From assembly GCF_003334305.1 (NCBI RefSeq), contig NZ_QOWS01000049.1: 6,386 bases of DNA; one strand, written 5' to 3'. The stretch is from Escherichia coli (lineage in GTDB: Bacteria; Pseudomonadota; Gammaproteobacteria; Enterobacterales; Enterobacteriaceae). The notes below the pieces were generated by a model that was given only the letters and a program-made list of their open reading frames with translations, had not been told where the DNA came from and ran no database searches. Positions within the stretch are counted from its first letter, which is position 1, and each line of letters opens with the position of its first letter. Below, in pieces: positions 63 through 6,139 of the stretch. The position numbers were made by a program, and so were the translations under genes.

Positions 63-77
63 GTTGGAGTCATTACC
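1..77 (+). mobile_element. IS1 insertion sequence, right end only (element continues upstream of the window)
   Basis: Nt 1-77 match, from my memory of IS1, the last ~77 bp of the element in canonical orientation (AATCGGTGGAGCTGCATGACAAAGTCATCGGGCATTATCTGAACATAAAACACTATCAATAAGTTGGAGTCATTACC), ending with the right terminal inverted repeat at 55-77. Not verified by search. Confidence 0.85.
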
Positions 78-735
78 GTGCACGGTAACGGGCCATATCA
101 ATGAGCAGTTCCTCTCCAATTTTATTTGCCCCTAGAGAGCGGCGAGTTTTCTTCACTTCAATGACAATCTTCTCTTTCTTCAGAAGAAAATCCTGTCTGG
201 ATGATGAACCTGCGAAGCTAGGTGAATTTTCTTCAGGTCTGACATCATTAAAATGCAGCAGCAGAAGAGCATGAACAAGATCCTGTACATCATACTCGTC
301 ATTAATTTCAAGCGGCGTTCTGTCATTGTATCGTTGCTTTAATTGACGACAAAAAGCTGGAAATTTATTGAGTATATTTATAATCAAATCCAGTTCGGCA
401 TGTTTTGTTGCTATAGTCGATGCCGTGCCGGAGTAAGTTAAATCGTCTCTGGCTGCATCAAAAATAGGTTTGTAATGTCTAACCAATCCCTGATAATTAC
501 TAGACCAAGCAATCCTTTGTGTATCATTAAAATCTTTGTAGTAATCAGATTCCTTTCCATAACTGTCTTCAAGTAACTTTTTTGCTCTTGCAATCCAGTT
601 ATTACCTTTAGCCGAATCAATATATTCCTGGCTTCTGTGACTAAATGCACTTGTTCCCATATATTTTGTCGACATGACAGAATTGTACTCTTGTTCAAGC
701 ACTTCAAATCTTTCAGCTAAGGTCTTCTTCGTCAT
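73..735 (-). CDS. Hypothetical protein with a C-terminal PD-(D/E)xK-like nuclease motif; 3' end created by the IS1 junction, so probably truncated
   Basis: ORF track frame 73..747 (-). Position 747 is a TTG; the first ATG is at 735 (MTKKTLAERFE...), giving about 220 aa. The C-terminal region reads EYDVQDLVHALLLLHF ... SSSRQDFLLKKEKIVIEVKK: an acidic helix, a D in a hydrophobic strand, then E-V-K 11 residues later, the arrangement expected for a PD-(D/E)xK core (motif-level inference only). The last sense codon and the TAA stop (73-75) overlap the IS1 terminus, which ends at 77. Confidence 0.55.
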   Translation of the reverse strand: MTKKTLAERFEVLEQEYNSVMSTKYMGTSAFSHRSQEYIDSAKGNNWIARAKKLLEDSYGKESDYYKDFNDTQRIAWSSNYQGLVRHYKPIFDAARDDLTYSGTASTIATKHAELDLIINILNKFPAFCRQLKQRYNDRTPLEINDEYDVQDLVHALLLLHFNDVRPEENSPSFAGSSSRQDFLLKKEKIVIEVKKTRRSLGANKIGEELLIDMARYRAR

Positions 736-811
736 AGCGCAATCCAAATTATATGCTAATAATACCTGTGAATTTTAATATTCTACCATATCTGGCTTTC
801 TTCCGTTCACA

Positions 812-2837: not shown

Positions 2838-4340
2838 ATGAAGAAATTTTATCAATTTAGGGATGAACAGCGAAAGGAGCTTGAACAACATGATTTTTAT
2901 AGTTTGATTTCTTCAGATTGTATAGCGTTGAAAGACAAACTATTATTTGCTCCTGTTATGGCTCATTTCATAATGAACTTCAGAGACATGAATAAATGGG
3001 TTATCAGGTTTGATAACAATGATAATGAATATAAATCTGTTATAAACGGTGGAACAATCGAGGATGAAACACATTCAAGATTGTTTCTGGAAGACTGGAG
3101 GAAACTATATATAGATGACAAACTTAACTGGAAAGCAAGTGATGTTATATACTGGTTGTTTATTAGTCGAGAAATGGAGTGTTTCCGAAAATTTGGTATT
3201 GATTTTATGAGACTTTGTGTAGATGATGGAGGAGACCCAATACTTCGATATTCTCACTCCGAGTCAGGAGAAACTTGCGGTAATATATTCTTTTCAAGAA
3301 TTAGTCCTATTGCTGATCAAGTTGCCAATCATTTGGGAATATCACTCCGTTATTTTGGAACATTTCACCTTAATCTTGAAAATGGACATGTATGGAAGTC
3401 AGAAGGTGTTTTTGAAAATATAGAGTTGTCACCAGATTCTTATAAGAAAATGGCTACTCTATCAAAGAGAATGTTTGATATATTTGAAGGAATTCATGAC
3501 TCTTTTTATAATTACCTGTCCAGTTATGTTCTTAATGGAAGTCATCCGTCATTTTTTGAATCATTACCTGTAGGGAAAAATGTTGCACCTATATACCCTG
3601 AATTTGTGATAGAAAACAAAAGCCATAACGATGGTAGACATATTGAACATATAAACAATTACCTGGAAAAAATATCGAGTCATGAGTTCTTTAAATGGCT
3701 GGTTAACACCTCAATAGACCCTCAATTGAAATTGAAAAGTTTCATACCTCTTTGGATTGTTGATATTATGGGGTATAGAGATATTAATAAATATGTTTTT
3801 ACATATGAACAGCCTGAATCAGAAAGTGAAAAGATTATAAATGATTATGCATTACACTTGTCAGAGCATAGCCGTTTATTTTATCATGACTGGAAGTCAC
3901 TTCAACTTGATGATATGTTACGTTGGAGTGCCAGTGATACTCTTGAGTTTATTTTTCTTAATTCAGATATGGATATGCATAGAGAAAATATAGTTAAGTT
4001 TTCTTTGTTCGGATTAAAACACAGAGATCCTGTTATCAGGTTCTGGTTTATGATGATACTGGAGTTAAGTGGAAAAGAATTTTTCTCTCATGTTGGAGAT
4101 ATAGCTTTACAGGTGGAAAGTAAATATAATATTTATCTCCCATATTTATGTGGACGCCATGCAACAGAAAATGAGCATGAAGCATATAATAATATGTATG
4201 AGCATTTTATGGTAAAGGAACTTAGCCCTGAACAAAGTGATCTAATAATACAAATTACAGACATGGTTATGCGGTCATTATTGAATAATTTGGATATCTC
4301 ATATCGATATGTAGTAAATAATTTATTGGCAGCTCGTTAG
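2838..4340 (+). CDS. Hypothetical 500-aa protein made of two homologous ~220-aa halves; function unknown
   Basis: Long ORF with a strong AGGAG Shine-Dalgarno site, its own AT-rich promoter region and its own terminator. The two halves share ETHSRLFLEDWRKLYIDDKLNWKASD versus EHSRLFYHDWKSLQLDDMLRWSASD, FRDMNKWV versus YRDINKYV, and a later ELSP motif. No signal peptide or TM helix is apparent. Codon usage is strongly AT-biased compared with the flanking sequence. Confidence 0.8.
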   Translation: MKKFYQFRDEQRKELEQHDFYSLISSDCIALKDKLLFAPVMAHFIMNFRDMNKWVIRFDNNDNEYKSVINGGTIEDETHSRLFLEDWRKLYIDDKLNWKASDVIYWLFISREMECFRKFGIDFMRLCVDDGGDPILRYSHSESGETCGNIFFSRISPIADQVANHLGISLRYFGTFHLNLENGHVWKSEGVFENIELSPDSYKKMATLSKRMFDIFEGIHDSFYNYLSSYVLNGSHPSFFESLPVGKNVAPIYPEFVIENKSHNDGRHIEHINNYLEKISSHEFFKWLVNTSIDPQLKLKSFIPLWIVDIMGYRDINKYVFTYEQPESESEKIINDYALHLSEHSRLFYHDWKSLQLDDMLRWSASDTLEFIFLNSDMDMHRENIVKFSLFGLKHRDPVIRFWFMMILELSGKEFFSHVGDIALQVESKYNIYLPYLCGRHATENEHEAYNNMYEHFMVKELSPEQSDLIIQITDMVMRSLLNNLDISYRYVVNNLLAAR

Positions 4341-4374
4341 AAGAACAGCATTGGTATGACTCTGATGCTCCTTA

Positions 4375-4404
4375 AAATCCCACTTTTCAGAGTGGGATTT
4401 GTTT
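4375..4404 (+). terminator. Rho-independent terminator of the 500-aa ORF
   Basis: Perfect 10-bp stem AAATCCCACT (4375-4384) / AGTGGGATTT (4391-4400), loop TTTCAG, followed by GTTTAAT. It lies 35 nt after the TAG stop at 4338-4340. Confidence 0.65.
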
Positions 4405-4504
4405 AATGCCCAGAACAGGGGGAATTTCCATTCATGCCCAAAAAATATTTTGATGTCCTCTCGCCAATTCTCGCGCTCAGTCCTTCCTGAAAAACCTCAG
4501 AATT

Positions 4505-4645
4505 CACGTAGCGCATCGCCGCTACTGCATCCATCAAAAAAAATGACAGCTTTTTTAATCATCTTGTGTTACTCAACTTACTGAAAAATGTGATTTATGA
4601 AAATGCCGCCGTCGGCATCAAGCAGTTGGCCAGCGCAACCGGCTG
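4505..4645. repeat. Repeat block U, copy A (about 140-bp core; homologous to 5765-5905)
   Basis: Shared anchors, by eye about 75% identity: TTCACGTAGCG, TACTG-ATCCATCAA, AATGAC, CTACTGAAAAAT, GGC-ACAGCATC. The reading frames are not conserved between the two copies, so it is probably non-coding. Confidence 0.55.
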
Positions 4646-4726
4646 CATCGACCGCAACAAAAAAACTGAAAGAGAAAGCCCCTCAAATGAGGGAGAAAAA
4701 AAGGAAGTGCAGTCAACGAGAGGCGT

Positions 4727-4814
4727 AAAAAACCCGACTGGTGAGGTCGGGTTTTAATACGGTTCCGGTTCTGAGTTGGTGGCTCTGACCGGAGGAAGTC
4801 ACTCTACACCTAAC
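4727..4814 (-). ncRNA. Candidate antisense small RNA (type I antitoxin-like), divergent from the 31-aa peptide gene
   Basis: Minus-strand promoter: TTGCAA (4844-4849), 17-bp spacer, TAAAAT (plus-strand 4821-4826). The predicted start is near 4814. The terminator is stem CCCGAC (4733-4738) / GTCGGG (4746-4751) with loop TGGTGAG and a U6 run on the minus strand. The first 24 nt (complement of 4791-4814) pair with plus-strand 5026-5049 in the peptide mRNA leader (23 Watson-Crick pairs plus one G-U). Confidence 0.5.
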
Positions 4815-4820
4815 GTTTAC

Positions 4821-4849
4821 ATTTTATGCACTCAGCCGCAGTATTGCAA
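4821..4849 (-). promoter_or_regulatory. Candidate sigma70 promoter of the antisense RNA (-35 TTGCAA, -10 TAAAAT, 17-bp spacer)
   Basis: Read on the minus strand: TTGCAA, then TACTGCGGCTGAGTGCA, then TAAAAT. Confidence 0.45.
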
Positions 4850-4903
4850 CTAACTGTGGTTAAGGCACCACATTTAGTTGTGTATCGTGGGTTTTATATA
4901 CCT

Positions 4904-4909
4904 TATAAT
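4904..4909 (+). promoter_or_regulatory. Candidate -10 (TATAAT) for the peptide mRNA, implying a leader of about 210 nt
   Basis: Consensus TATAAT at 4904-4909 with an AT-rich upstream region; the -35 is poor. It is divergent from the antisense RNA promoter, about 55 bp away. Confidence 0.3.
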
Positions 4910-5025
4910 CATGAAGTTAGCCGTGTGGTGTGGCTTCTTCCTCTGCCCTTCCCGTTTATGCAGGTATGAACGATTTTAAAGTCCTGGCTGAACAAACAGG
5001 TGGTGCTGTGTTTAGTGCTCTGGCA

Positions 5026-5049
5026 GGAGGAAGTCACTCTGCACCTAAC
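5026..5049 (+). promoter_or_regulatory. Predicted antisense RNA target site in the peptide mRNA leader
   Basis: GGAGGAAGTCACTCTGCACCTAAC (5026-5049) differs at one position (A to G) from plus-strand 4791-4814, so it is complementary to the 5' end of the minus-strand RNA with one G-U wobble. Confidence 0.5.
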
Positions 5050-5102
5050 AATGCGAGAGAACCGTTGTGACAGGCAGTGTAAGAGCAAGCAACGGTGATT
5101 TC

Positions 5103-5119
5103 CTCCAGTTTTACTGGAG
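5103..5119 (+). promoter_or_regulatory. Hairpin sequestering the Shine-Dalgarno sequence of the peptide gene
   Basis: CTCCAG (5103-5108), loop TTTTA, CTGGAG (5114-5119). The SD GGAG (5116-5119) is inside the 3' arm. TTCCTCC at 5100-5106 could alternatively pair with GGAGGAA at 5026-5032. Confidence 0.4.
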
Positions 5120-5125
5120 AAACGG

Positions 5126-5221
5126 ATGATTAATCTGTTAATCATCGTTCTCAGGGCTGTGGTCGCCGTTGCAAACGCGCTGATTGCAATTCTGGAACTG
5201 ATTCGCCAGTTCATCGACTGA
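5126..5221 (+). CDS. 31-aa hydrophobic peptide, type I toxin-like (MINLLIIVLRAVVAVANALIAILELIRQFID)
   Basis: ATG at 5126 with GGAG 6 nt upstream. An in-frame stop lies upstream at 5096-5098, so this is the first possible start. The peptide has one predicted TM helix and a charged C-terminus. A near-identical paralog is at 6044..6139. It is not in the ORF track, which lists only the antisense frame 4909..5214. Confidence 0.6.
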   Translation: MINLLIIVLRAVVAVANALIAILELIRQFID

Positions 5222-5446
5222 TGACAGCGGAAACGTAACTAAGGACAGGAAGTGAACCGCTTCCTGCCCTTTAACATACTGTGATATTTTTCAAAAAAAC
5301 TCACCAATATTCTCCTCGGCAGAAATGACATAACTCACTGTAAAATAACAAATCATCTAAACGCCAGCTTTGTATTGAGCGCGTTGGCCAACGCCTTTAT
5401 CAGCTGCGACCGCACCAGATAATTTGAATAAGATTTCCCGCATCAC

Positions 5447-5472
5447 CTGGACATACAGGTTATTCTGTCCAT
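5447..5472. repeat. Dyad-symmetric motif copy 4 (CTGGACATACAGGTTATTCTGTCCAT)
   Basis: TGGACA (5449-5454) / TGTCCA (5466-5471), with an inner dyad ACCTG ... CAGGT. It lies in the spacer between the two peptide units. Confidence 0.6.
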
Positions 5473-5764
5473 ACCTCATTAGTTACAACATTCACGCGTT
5501 CTGTTCCTTTATCCGGTGCCCTGTTCCAGTATATGTGCCCATATCCTGGGTTATTCAGGATAACCGCTTCCTTTTCGCCCTGTCCTGTCGTTCATATCCC
5601 CCTGGACAAAAATGCATTATCGGAAAAAATGTCCAAAATTTTTTTGGTGATCGGAATTTTTGTTGTCGGACGCACCTCTTCTTCAGGTCATAATTGCTGA
5701 CACATCCCAAAAAACAGGAGCGGAGATTTAAAAATTGAGTCACTTACCCGCCAAAATTTTCCAG

Positions 5765-5905
5765 ATTTCACGTAGCGTACCGTCGATACTGTATCCATCA
5801 ACAAATGACTATTTTTTGAATGTGTCATTTCCTGTAACCTACTGAAAAATATCAGTGAATGACAATATCGGCGACAGCATCGGAGCTGATAGCCAGTTTC
5901 CTGAA
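5765..5905. repeat. Repeat block U, copy B (homologous to 4505-4645)
   Basis: Same anchors as copy A. It is preceded by a candidate -10 (CATAAT, 5689-5694) and followed by the hairpin at 5994-6032. Confidence 0.55.
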
Positions 5906-5993
5906 TGCATATGGCCAGAACAGTAAATTTGAACCAGGTTCTCACGTCACCAGGCGACGTGTCTGGGAAACTGGTGAACAACAGGCACAGAAA

Positions 5994-6032
5994 AGCCCAA
6001 CTTTATGGGGGTCAGTTCAGTGAGGTTGGGCT
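5994..6032. terminator. Hairpin homologous to the sRNA terminators (8-bp stem, enlarged 23-nt loop), directly upstream of the second peptide gene
   Basis: AGCCCAAC (5994-6001) pairs perfectly with GTTGGGCT (6025-6032). The loop ends in TCAGTGAG, compared with TGGTGAG in the other copies. On the plus strand, A4 lies upstream and no U tract follows. Confidence 0.45.
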
Positions 6033-6043
6033 AAGAGAAACGA

Positions 6044-6139
6044 ATGATTAACCTGTTAATCATCATTCTCAGGGATGTGGTCGCCGTTGCAAACGCGCGG
6101 ATTGCAGTTCTGGAACTGATTCGCCAGTTCATCGTTTGA
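6044..6139 (+). CDS. Second copy of the 31-aa peptide (MINLLIIILRDVVAVANARIAVLELIRQFIV), possibly degenerate
   Basis: ATG at 6044 with a weaker ribosome-binding site (AAGAG). It differs from copy 1 at 7 nt (V8I, A11D, L19R, I22V, D31V, one synonymous), and two of these put charged residues in the hydrophobic core. It lacks the sRNA, promoter and leader block present upstream of copy 1. Confidence 0.45.
   Translation: MINLLIIILRDVVAVANARIAVLELIRQFIV

Follow-up and report, generated by a model that had tools for sequence, protein, structure and literature searches.

A repeated non-coding block beside a dqlB/agrB module as possible vestigial IncX backbone carrying a palindrome linked to tyrosine recombinases

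The stretch of Escherichia coli DNA analysed here, referred to as the window, comprises 6,386 nt of contig NZ_QOWS01000049.1; it is of IncX origin, bounded by IS1 copies, and belongs to ColV-type IncF plasmids. It contains two toxin-antitoxin units of different integrity and a non-coding block repeated in association with them. A 500-aa ORF had no match in Pfam, NCBIfam or PADLOC. The features needed to follow the argument, with their coordinates in the window, are these:

4453–4519, plus strand: copy A of a palindrome designated E (nhmmer E-value 4e-5, 23.6 bits)
4503–4530, no strand assigned: imperfect 11-6-11 palindrome, TTCACGTAGCG-CATCGC-CGCTACTGCAT, read from the sequence
4514–4661, plus strand: core copy A, A/T-rich and non-coding (core profile, E-value 4.7e-34)
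4679–4694, minus strand: further terminator-like hairpin, weak, beyond the AgrB terminator (terminator scan)
4725–4813, minus strand: AgrB-like antitoxin sRNA, full length (Rfam RF02891, 64 bits, E-value 1.6e-9)
4821–4849, minus strand: predicted promoter of the AgrB-like RNA, TTGCAA-17-TAAAAT (promoter scan)
5002–5049, plus strand: AgrB target repeat in the 5′UTR of dqlB-A, a direct repeat of 4767–4814 (81 %)
5126–5221, plus strand: dqlB-A, DinQ-like type I toxin of 31 aa (ORF; RefSeq WP_000609147.1)
5286–5419, plus strand: core copy C, diverged and with no E before it (core profile, E-value 6.9e-26)
5448–5471, plus strand: TGGACA-N12-TGTCCA palindrome, one of five copies in the same orientation in the window
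5479–5491, minus strand: Tus-binding Ter core ATGTTGTAACTAA, exact match
5717–5783, plus strand: E copy B, resD type (nhmmer E-value 1e-6), with an exact right arm at 5762–5777
5767–5794: palindrome before core copy B, TTCACGTAGCG-TACCGT-CGATACTGTAT
5779–5896, plus strand: core copy B (core profile, E-value 1.5e-15)
5990–6030, no strand assigned: what is left of an AgrB terminator hairpin, its loop interrupted by an insertion (module alignment)
6044–6139, plus strand: dqlB-B, decayed toxin copy (ORF and translation; RefSeq WP_000609144.1)

Both 31-aa ORFs are named DqlB in RefSeq. Unit A shares with the published type I toxin-antitoxin systems dinQ/agrB and dqlB/agrB (Weel-Sneve, 2013, PMC3567139; Kristiansen, 2016, PMC5066626; the pOXA-48 study of 2025, PMC12365149) a hydrophobic toxin of 31 aa, a divergent AgrB-like sRNA and a 23–36-nt pairing in the 5′UTR. 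The first 23 nt of its AgrB-like RNA pair without interruption with positions 5026–5048, the predicted duplex with the target reaching −86.5 kcal/mol versus −51 ± 5 in shuffles, and the position of the predicted promoter fits the 5′ end given by Rfam at 4813. A hairpin at 4727–4755 does exist, as had been predicted, at the end of block copy A; nevertheless, its U-tract is better on the minus strand (GUCGGGUUUUUUAC) than on the plus strand (GGGUUUUAAU). It is the terminator of the AgrB-like RNA matched by Rfam and not the plus-strand terminator first proposed. In unit B, the body of AgrB, both promoters and the 5′UTR have been deleted between the hairpin remnant and the SD of dqlB-B, Rfam returned no AgrB match and no promoter was predicted, and the substitutions A11D and L18R place charges in the membrane helix of the deduced product. 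Gene dqlB-B is, by all appearances, a dead copy within a decayed unit, and the AgrB-type antisense pairing to the toxin 5′UTR is predicted for unit A only, having been lost in unit B.

The original prediction described a repeat between 4437–4730 and 5706–5991 with a core at 4505–4645 and 5765–5905, and both statements proved accurate, the latter to within about 10 nt. Local alignment of the two segments joined 4498–4633 to 5762–5896 with 100 of 132 positions identical (76 %) and a score of 49, against 10.0 ± 1.4 in 500 shuffles (z = 28); the same match had a blastn E-value of 4.7e-13, and past ca. 4645/5905 hardly any alignment between them is possible. A core profile built solely from sequences of other plasmids, when run on the window, identified three copies (4514–4661, 5286–5419 and 5779–5896), of which copy C had been missed before. 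The core is A/T-rich and ca. 150 nt long, and in copy A retains the conserved strings CATCAAAAAAA, AACTTACTGAAAAAT and GTTGGCCAGCGC; the agrB/dqlB module is located between two core copies, and copy C lines up with the part of the IncX4 backbone that precedes resD. Reading frames are not conserved, also as predicted: the longest stop-free stretch varies in frame and length among six homologues of the block, whose alignments contain 1- and 2-nt indels. The 61- and 63-aa frames are thus artefactual, and for the same reasons the 55-aa "hypothetical protein" annotated by RefSeq at 4590–4757 was not kept as a gene and is, as far as sequence comparison can tell, an artefact.

The block (4437–4724) lies outside the conserved dqlB/agrB toxin-antitoxin unit, being missing from chromosomal dinQ-agrAB and present in plasmids without dqlB; the tie to toxin units first proposed for it is therefore not maintained. 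Alignment with the chromosomal dinQ-agrA unit is limited to 4725–5277 of the window, and E with the core but without dqlB occurs in four of the comparison loci (L012, L013, L014 and L015).

Each block consists of a degenerate copy of E followed by a core, and profile searches found two E copies and three cores in the window, the nhmmer profile for E comprising 52 elements from other genomes. E is a 59-bp palindrome, CGCTACGTGAAATCTG-N25-CAGATTTCACGTAGCG, with 16-nt arms and a fixed 25-nt spacer. Copy A has a degenerate left arm (4457–4472), a 25-nt spacer and an exact right arm, CAGAATTCACGTAGCG (4498–4513), and conserves the 11-mer TTCACGTAGCG exactly. In copy B the left arm has turned into an SD and a TTG start (5735) followed by 14 ResD-family codons, and exactly where its right arm ends this resD-type E gives way to a core, followed by a dqlB unit that has been gutted. 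The imperfect palindrome at 4503–4530 overlaps the right arm of E and in its spacing resembles a tyrosine-recombinase core site, with a symmetry of 7/11 between its arms, which are conserved among plasmid homologues, whereas the 6-nt centre is variable. Copy A has a good version of this 11-6-11 palindrome, L014 a weak one, and most resD starts none.

The origin of the surrounding DNA is evident from IncX4 plasmids, in which the intact backbone runs from E through the core, the TGGACA..TGTCCA palindrome and the Ter site to a second E with the resolvase start codon, and then to parA. In these relatives the unit adjoins the Tus Ter site, shared by the window with the IncX4 locus L017, and lies upstream of a ResD-family resolvase gene that starts inside E; the TGGACA-N12-TGTCCA palindrome was found by pattern search five times in the window versus 0.26 expected. 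Window positions 5291–5777 are 83 % identical to L014 (3035–3542), and 5100–5777 are 94.7 % identical to L003 (3393–4072). The homology to L003 stops at 5777, the end of E, where L003 runs on into a recombinase gene whose product is 49 % identical to ResD of F; in the window, a ResD-family gene is cut short after 14 codons. The block is non-coding IncX-type plasmid backbone brought into an IncF plasmid between two IS1 copies, and what these enclose is the terminus and resolution region captured from an IncX plasmid.

E is associated with recombinase genes well beyond the window. It overlaps the start of the ResD homologue in eight loci (L003, L008, L009, L012, L014, L031, L072 and L140), lies at the start of three of six ResD homologues picked solely for their protein similarity, occurs at resD starts on IncX, IncL and other resistance plasmids, and is directly upstream of 15 Cre-like genes. 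A ResD-type recombinase gene adjoins E in IncX4, IncL and other relatives, and in a whole IncX4 plasmid all three copies of TTCACGTAGCG are within 600 bp of resD. A search of 5,426 E. coli genomes with a 72-nt E query (E-value ≤ 0.01) identified no chromosomal place and 22 plasmid places, all of them at recombinase genes. Among 132 genome matches to the 16-mer, 66 had the other arm at exactly 39 nt, and fetched loci contain from one to four E copies. E is also found between loxP and cra-cre in phage P1, around the start of gene 18.5 in virulent T7-like phages, and flanking single-gene cassettes in chromosomes of Tatumella, Pantoea and Serratia. No Rfam family was found for full E elements, and a sequence-based literature search returned only unrelated primer matches. 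The possibility raised at the outset that the block matches a known generic intergenic repeat holds in part, its left 60 nt belonging to a widespread family of which we found no description in the papers searched; the dqlB/agrB toxin-antitoxin system is already known, and the E palindrome is apparently undescribed.

With moderate confidence, we propose that the block would be vestigial IncX backbone in which E is a putative recognition or recombination site linked to tyrosine recombinases. The tandem arrangement E-core-agrB-dqlB ... E-core-(remnant)-dqlB may have arisen by recombination within E, the recombining pair being presumably the E at the resD start and the E that precedes the core, and the partner probably a different, diverged plasmid. 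Recombination at E draws support from the end of homology at 5777 and from the exchanged flanks around E copies in Tatumella. The suggestion that the block is the 3′ remnant of a longer ancestral unit holds in spirit, the repeated unit being E palindrome, core, agrB and dqlB. E and the overlapping TTCACGTAGCG-N6-CGCTACTGCAT could form a protein-recognised site serving in binding, autoregulation or crossover by an E-type ResD resolvase, to which the core would contribute as accessory DNA. Because resD is deleted in the window, both blocks are probably vestigial there, and would be relevant as recombination substrates rather than in the control of the toxin.

Several observations temper the crossover role. 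Any crossover within a shared stretch of 16–60 nt would leave homology breaking off where E ends, and such a break is hence no proof of site-specific recombination; the one at 5777 is compatible with RecA-dependent or replication-slippage events and, like the reassorted flanks in Tatumella described below, also with homologous recombination inside E. Arms placed 25 bp apart make a non-canonical tyrosine-recombinase core, the stable presence in IncX4 plasmids of two directly repeated E copies at a distance of 525 bp argues against an efficient resolution site, and a resolvase site makes no sense in virulent T7-like phages. In the Cre-like loci there is a separate lox/pox-like 13-8-13 site 80–130 nt upstream of E, and E is therefore not their crossover site. 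Compared with loxP-Cre and pox/rox sites, E occupies the interval between lox site and recombinase in P1-like phages and likewise in 10 loci of Pantoea, Rahnella and Moritella, but differs in the presence of that separate lox-like site.

A further parallel is the rfsF-ResD system of F, R64 and IncR plasmids; rfsF has been reported as a hotspot of plasmid mosaicism, with mosaic junctions at ResD sites in IncI1, IncR and IncF plasmids (PMC8004404, PMC9412624). The IncX4 recombinase gene lies upstream of parA as in R64, and the 11-6-11 imperfect palindrome of the block comes close to rfsF in geometry. Nevertheless, the arms of E are 16 nt long, 25 bp apart and overlap a gene start, and the F-type ResD genes lack E: no E was found in the resD regions of F and R64, and no rfsF-like string in the block. 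The rfsF site itself was rejected as an identity for E, its sequence being different (AGATCCGAAAA-CCCCAA-GTTACGGATCT). Should E prove to be the target of a recombinase or to mark module boundaries, the precision of mosaic junctions in clinically important plasmids would have an explanation, and two phages that are among the best studied would gain an element open to experiment. For the window itself, the annotation is corrected to include a 55-aa artefact, an AgrB hairpin, one dead dqlB, and a captured IncX terminus and resolution region.

It is possible, though on balance rather unlikely, that the block is a pure relic, that is, a functionless spacer duplicated with the toxin module, in which E acted as a portable homology "linker" for general recombination. 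Copy B is clearly decaying, the window has lost resD, E occurs in unrelated contexts that include T7, and the breakpoints between A-type and C-type cores fall at more than one position. However, the 16-nt arm is identical in Alteromonas, Moritella, Enterobacterales, P1 and plasmids, always with the spacer fixed at 25 nt, which would be hard to keep across orders without selection on E, and the core retains 65–80 % identity across IncX1, IncX4, IncK and MOBF plasmids.

We consider it unlikely that E instead controls expression of resD, cra-cre and T7 gene 18.5, either as an operator or promoter or as an mRNA hairpin at the translation start, the copies in the block being leftovers. E is always situated 5′ of recombinase genes in a single orientation, in P1 it is placed between the Dam-site region and the start of cra, and in T7 its 25-nt spacer contains the SD and ATG of gene 18.5; moreover, the left arm is often CGTAAAATCTG, resembling a −10 box, and canonical E has a predicted fold of −25.7 kcal/mol. 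Against this, with respect to the asymmetric spacer the gene points one way in T7 and the other way in the resD/cre loci, resD-type copies lose the hairpin yet keep the distal arm, changes in the left arm are uncompensated (in a biased sample), and in the chromosomes of Tatumella and Pantoea E faces the 3′ ends of genes.

More doubtful is the wider proposal that E might be a new site, recognised by its sequence, in a system for recombination or cassette exchange common to gamma-proteobacterial plasmids, phage-plasmids, phages and islands, with E-type ResD acting on it and dqlB/agrB, the chromosomal cassettes, T7 Rz and P1 cra-cre as the units moved or exchanged. In Tatumella, four E copies in the same orientation flank cassettes whose left and right flanks are reassorted, with no integrase within 14 kb of the array. 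In this respect E resembles Acinetobacter pdif modules and integron attC cassettes, in which single-gene or toxin-antitoxin modules are bordered by short palindromes; both the array and the window show reassortment of flanks at the site. It is unlike the XerC/D arms and the attC R″/R′ consensus, has no integron integrase nearby, and in the window the dqlB module is flanked by core copies rather than by two E copies.

A comparably low probability attaches to a role in the toxin-antitoxin system for the right-hand 70 nt of copy A (4662–4724), as a 3′ extension of AgrB, a back-up terminator or an insulator against read-through. This "A-type" tail, to which the hairpin at 4679–4694 is confined, carries that minus-strand terminator-like structure 30 nt beyond the AgrB terminator and is shared solely by cores directly adjoining agrB (copy A, L002, L006, L007 and L010), the hairpin itself being conserved in those four loci but not in copies B and C. 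But the hairpin is weak, with a 6-bp stem and an interrupted U-tract, and the tail accounts for a quarter of the block and for none of the A/B repeat.

That E is a miniature transposable element of 59 bp with 16-nt terminal inverted repeats, inserted in intergenic sites of phages, plasmids and chromosomes, seems very improbable. Inverted ends, an unvarying length and a few copies scattered through mobile DNA would suit such an element; however, no target-site duplication is visible at E and no pair of empty and filled sites was found, flanks are shared on one side only, which fits recombination rather than transposition, and E belongs to the coding start in resD, T7 18.5 and related genes. Scarcely credible is a plus-strand non-coding RNA ending at the hairpin at 4727–4755, as originally suggested. 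In its favour are the UUUUAAU that follows the hairpin on that strand and a plus-strand folding z-score of −2.7 with the terminator included. However, the hairpin belongs to the 3′ end of the minus-strand AgrB-like RNA, no plus-strand promoter was predicted in 4400–4730, and the block had no Rfam match; copy B lacks such a terminator, and different DNA follows copy C. The conserved strings show no arrangement into covarying helices, and apart from the terminator the block is predicted to fold no more stably than shuffled sequence (z = −0.7 on the minus strand).

Other identities for the block and for E were considered and rejected. The block has no long stem, as would be required of an Frpo-type single-stranded promoter or a long hairpin, does not align with the chromosomal dinQ promoter or the agrA-agrB spacer, and as a LexA box has only a partial right half in copy B (TACTGTATCCATCAACAAAT), copy A being worse. 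A minus-strand ORF starting MIKKAVIFF... resembles the N-terminus of DinQ, and is not kept in L002 or in copy B; a 59-aa hydrophobic ORF 3′ of dqlB in L007 and L010 is in DNA different from the core. R6K Pir iterons share TACGTGAA with E, but the IncX4 iteron AGGGGACAGATTTATGGTCAAA is unrelated to it, and the TTTCACGT common to E and half of parS was judged coincidental. Comparison by eye with consensus sequences gave no convincing match to Xer sites (cer/psi/dif), the ArgR box, matS, the SlmA site or KOPS, or to ECF and sigma-54 promoters, and the likeness of the right arm to a downstream box is weak. A lox site was discarded because Cre-like loci carry their own, and integron attC because the arms lack the RYYYAAC...GTTRRRY consensus and no IntI gene is nearby. 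The T7 RNase III site R18.5 is a hairpin ca. 30 nt upstream of E and not E, T7 coordinate 36,856 being presumably that of this upstream hairpin. Finally, E shares with REP/BIME, ERIC and Correia elements the character of a short, imperfect intergenic palindrome able to form an RNA hairpin, but differs from them in being low-copy, conserved across orders and tied to the starts of recombinase genes.

The segments 4437-4730 (copy A) and 5706-5991 (copy B) are related, as originally predicted: their best local alignment pairs 4498-4633 with 5762-5896, with 100 of 132 aligned bases identical, and is far above chance (score of 49 versus 10.0 +/- 1.4 in 500 shuffles; blastn E-value of 4.7e-13). The similarity is nearly gone beyond ca. 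4645/5905. Both copies carry at their head the 16-mer CAGAWTTCACGTAGCG (4498-4513 and 5762-5777), and each block is formed by a member of a family of palindromic elements, designated E, followed by a plasmid-specific core. We searched the window with a profile of 52 E elements, none of them from the plasmid loci studied here, and with a core profile built solely from homologous plasmid sequences outside the window, which also identified a third core (copy C). The features of the block are:

4453-4519, E of copy A, left arm worn (E-profile E-value 4e-5)
4514-4661, core of copy A (core-profile E-value 5e-34)
4590-4757, 55-aa hypothetical protein of the RefSeq annotation
5286-5419, core of copy C, more diverged, downstream of the first toxin gene (core-profile E-value 7e-26)
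5717-5783, E of copy B, of "resD type", its left arm now being GGAG...TTG, a Shine-Dalgarno (SD) sequence plus start codon (E-profile E-value 1e-6)
5779-5896, core of copy B (core-profile E-value 1.5e-15)

The block is non-coding. There is no conserved reading frame, the longest stop-free stretch varying in frame and length across six homologues, and indels of 1 and 2 nt occur in the alignments. The ORF-track frames in the block are thus artefacts, as had been suspected, and so, most likely, is the 55-aa hypothetical protein, because no frame is kept among the homologues.

The block is not a plus-strand RNA gene either. The original prediction had it ending, as a possible non-coding RNA, at a hairpin (4727-4755) that is instead the terminator of a minus-strand AgrB-like antitoxin RNA, so that the block lies downstream of the antitoxin gene and has no plus-strand hairpin of its own following it. 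Part of the tail of copy A (4662-4724) may serve AgrB as a back-up terminator. The neighboring features are:

2357-2271, minus strand, second AgrB-like RNA gene (Rfam RF02891, 46 bits)
4813-4725, minus strand, full-length AgrB-like RNA (Rfam RF02891, 64 bits, E-value 1.6e-9)
4849-4821, minus strand, its promoter, TTGCAA-17-TAAAAT
5126-5221, dqlB-A, annotated as DinQ-like type I toxin DqlB
5479-5491, minus strand, exact match to the Tus-binding Ter core, ATGTTGTAACTAA, with dqlB-A on one side and the truncated resD start on the other
6044-6139, dqlB-B, annotated as DinQ-like type I toxin DqlB

AgrB forms, with its first 23 nt, an uninterrupted stretch of pairs with 5026-5048 of the dqlB-A leader, and the whole duplex reaches -86.5 kcal/mol versus -51 +/- 5 for shuffled RNA. 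Kristiansen et al. (2016; PMC5066626) defined the DqlB family; DqlB and the AgrB antisense RNA of pOXA-48 were shown to be a plasmid addiction module, which IncF plasmids gain sporadically from other plasmid groups (PMC12365149). The AgrB-like RNA at 2271-2357 has no adjoining toxin gene and is followed by four tandem CGCCTTTAA units (2393-2428). Its pairing with the dqlB-A leader is poorer (12-nt run; -65 kcal/mol versus -45 +/- 5 in shuffled sequences), and it may be an orphan or, like agrA on the chromosome, a second antitoxin.

The block lies outside the conserved toxin-antitoxin unit. In K-12, the chromosomal dinQ-agrA unit can be aligned only with 4725-5277, with no counterpart of the block in the arsR-gor region, and the block occurs without a nearby dqlB in an Enterobacter MOBF plasmid (L012), pIMI-6 (L013), an IncX4 plasmid (L014) and a Klebsiella plasmid (L015). 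The order in L014 is hns, a hypothetical gene, the block, a TGGACA..TGTCCA palindrome, a Ter site, a tyrosine recombinase gene and parA; in intact backbones the block is thus located in the terminus/resolution region upstream of resD. Window 5291-5777 is collinear with L014 (83 % identity), so the agrB-dqlB-A module sits between two diverged cores, A and C. The Ter core, also found in L002, L003, L012 and L017 (10048-10060), identifies the segment as an IncX-backbone replication terminus region of the R6K-like kind that has come to reside in an IncF plasmid. A 2-kb region is 100 % identical to many E. coli ColV-type IncF plasmids, such as pECOS88 (NC_011747.1), where one IS1 copy flanks it on each side and its location is between the sit operon and sopAB.

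Copy B most likely has a composite origin. Window 5100-5777 is 94.7 % identical to 3393-4072 of the IncX4 plasmid L003, and the homology ends exactly at 5777, past which L003 runs on into a tyrosine recombinase gene (4030-4845; product 49 % identical to ResD of F) and the window into core B. In the IncX4 relatives, CAGAWTTCACGTAGCG lies within the first 14 codons of that gene. L014 carries two direct E repeats 525 bp apart, with E1 preceding the core and E2 located where resD starts. The junction of copy B, shared by the IncX1 plasmid L002, consists of the resD upstream region, SD, TTG and 14 codons, followed by the core. This is exactly what recombination of E2 in one molecule with E1 in a second one would yield, which is the most likely origin of the arrangement. 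Core B is only about 76-80 % identical to any other core while its left side is 95 % identical to IncX4, indicating a diverged plasmid as exchange partner rather than a sister copy. Since E is the last stretch common to both partners, any crossover within it mimics a break at its end; the junction is compatible with a site-specific, RecA-dependent or replication-slip crossover, and is no proof of site-specific recombination.

We aligned full modules from the window, IncX1, IncX3, IncX4 and one untyped (MOBP) plasmid. An intact module begins with the block, which is followed by the terminator and body of AgrB on the minus strand, the divergent promoters, the leader containing the AgrB target, and finally dqlB. 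Copy B retains just the two terminator halves, with an insertion in the loop (5990-6030), and the SD of dqlB-B follows them immediately. It has therefore lost the AgrB body, the leader and the two promoters, and neither an AgrB match (Rfam) nor a promoter (promoter scan) was found there. DqlB-B carries A11D and L18R within its membrane helix. Copy B is thus a gutted full module, which bears out the alternative view of the block as the remnant of a longer unit. In L002 (NZ_CP016571.1, 4259-4391), agrB recombined with its own target repeat in the dinQ leader, deleting both promoters and leaving a single hybrid copy ahead of dinQ, which is a second, independent route of toxin-unit decay. In some IncX plasmids (L007 3833-4012, L010 1480-1659) a conserved hydrophobic ORF of 59 aa (MDFMSILGRCLLLPFPVAMFVGC...), which has a good SD, replaces the core copy after dqlB, and may code for a second small membrane protein.

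As a feature of the window, the block is ordinary plasmid debris beside a known toxin-antitoxin system; it merits attention chiefly because E is a sharply conserved, widely spread palindrome. An exact-pattern scan of one genome per species found 132 occurrences of the 16-mer. By our own estimate, ca. 280 would be expected by chance for this pattern (one two-fold position) in about 6e11 positions, so part of the matches, e.g. a conserved Rothia gene, are noise. Nevertheless, 66 of the 132 have the inverted arm CTACGTGAAATCTG (up to 4 mismatches) exactly 39 nt upstream, for which we calculate a chance probability of about 3e-4 per site. E is CGCTACGTGAAATCTG - 25 nt - CAGATTTCACGTAGCG, with a spacer that is asymmetric in Enterobacterales (roughly ..GTAAC.CCCCTGC..TTTT..), and occurs in Enterobacterales, Alteromonadales, Pasteurellales and Pseudomonas. 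In the blocks it is directly followed by CACCGC-CGCTACTGCAT or a variant, which forms with the right arm an 11-6-11 imperfect palindrome with conserved arms and variable centre. Full E elements matched no Rfam family, a literature search by sequence returned only unrelated primers, and E appears to be neither annotated nor described in the well-studied replicons T7, P1, IncX and IncL.

E is associated with recombinase genes. It overlaps the start of ResD-type genes in L003, L008, L009, L012, L014, L031, L072 and L140 (an IncL pOXA-48-like plasmid), and a 72-nt query found it in 5,426 E. coli genomes solely on plasmids, at recombinase genes, and never on the chromosome. Six ResD homologues were also sampled by protein similarity alone (about 45 % identity), avoiding ascertainment by DNA similarity: E was present at the start of the three stand-alone genes (Pantoea, Yersinia, Citrobacter; E-values 8e-4 to 3e-9) but not at the three genes of F/R64 type, each coupled to an ORF upstream. 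ResD thus falls into two subfamilies, and rfsF, the site known from experiments, goes with the F/R64-type one and differs in sequence from E. For 15 Cre-like genes, E is immediately adjacent to the 5′ end, at a distance of no more than roughly 100 nt. It is not their crossover site, because the ten loci inspected (Pantoea, Rahnella, Moritella, Pluralibacter) have a separate canonical lox/pox-like 13-8-13 site (compare PMC4957104) 80-130 nt further upstream.

We give about an even chance to E and the overlapping 11-6-11 palindrome being a recognition site tied to E-type ResD, at which the resolvase would bind, regulate its own gene or cross over, the core serving as accessory DNA; both would be vestigial here, since resD is gone. 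Against this reading, arms spaced 25 bp apart would be unorthodox for a crossover site, IncX4 stably keeps two direct copies, Cre-like loci own a separate lox site, and E occurs in T7. As the main rivals, E could be a mere conserved linker where general recombination reshuffles modules, which we consider possible but doubtful, or it could act on expression of the following gene, which seems improbable.

In the Tatumella ptyseos chromosome, four copies in one orientation (L062 4450, 6355, 7357 and 10122) bound cassettes with NUDIX and a type II toxin-antitoxin pair, a lytic polysaccharide monooxygenase and lipoproteins, with no recombinase within 14 kb. The left flank is common to E2 and E4 and the right flank to E3 and E4, so flanks were reassorted at E. 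Pantoea stewartii has an NlpC/P60 gene between two copies.

Among viral contigs, 113 loci contain the 16-mer. The T7 element, CTACGTGAAATCTG-N25-GAATTTTTACGTAAGC (NC_001604, about 36,883-36,937; L255 383-437; E-value 1.3e-7), has the SD and ATG of gene 18.5 (Rz-like spanin) inside the 25-nt spacer, CTACGTGAAATCTG being the proximal arm and the distal arm codons 3-8; we know of no function assigned to it. The 285P/BA14 group shares this arrangement (phage 285P, L254 955-1021), and another phage group has an E arm between the endolysin and Rz genes. P1-like phage-plasmids have loxP, then ca. 100 nt with GATC sites, and after these E (E-value 2.5e-14), 30 nt, cra and cre, with E just past the GATC cluster (L150 1372-1438; P1 records H174-H176). 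In other P1-like contigs (L148, L224, L232), E is followed by a 356-aa ORF and then cre.

The window also contains five TGGACA-N12-TGTCCA palindromes (0.26 expected by chance), with an inner part of about TTCAGGTAAT, which mark module boundaries:

813-836, palindrome copy
1148-1171, palindrome copy
1711-1734, palindrome copy
2260-2283, palindrome copy
5448-5471, palindrome copy

All are in the same orientation, and the palindrome looks like an operator of a plasmid-wide regulator. After the copy at 813 come GTTCTGCTGGCTG...CTGGTATAAT and a hydrophobic ORF of 64 aa (905-1099), a layout shared with pIMI-6 (L013) and L015. A 500-aa A/T-rich ORF (2838-4340, plus strand), with no match in Pfam, NCBIfam or PADLOC, accompanies the block and dqlB in IncX4, IncK2/Z and IncF plasmids (L003, L016, L011). 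A 224-aa ORF (73-747, minus strand) matches the C-terminal part of PADLOC Aga_Helical-REase (E-value 4e-23, positions 213-332 of 378) and is probably a defence-type nuclease gene cut by IS1, because it extends into the IS1 end located at the start of the window.
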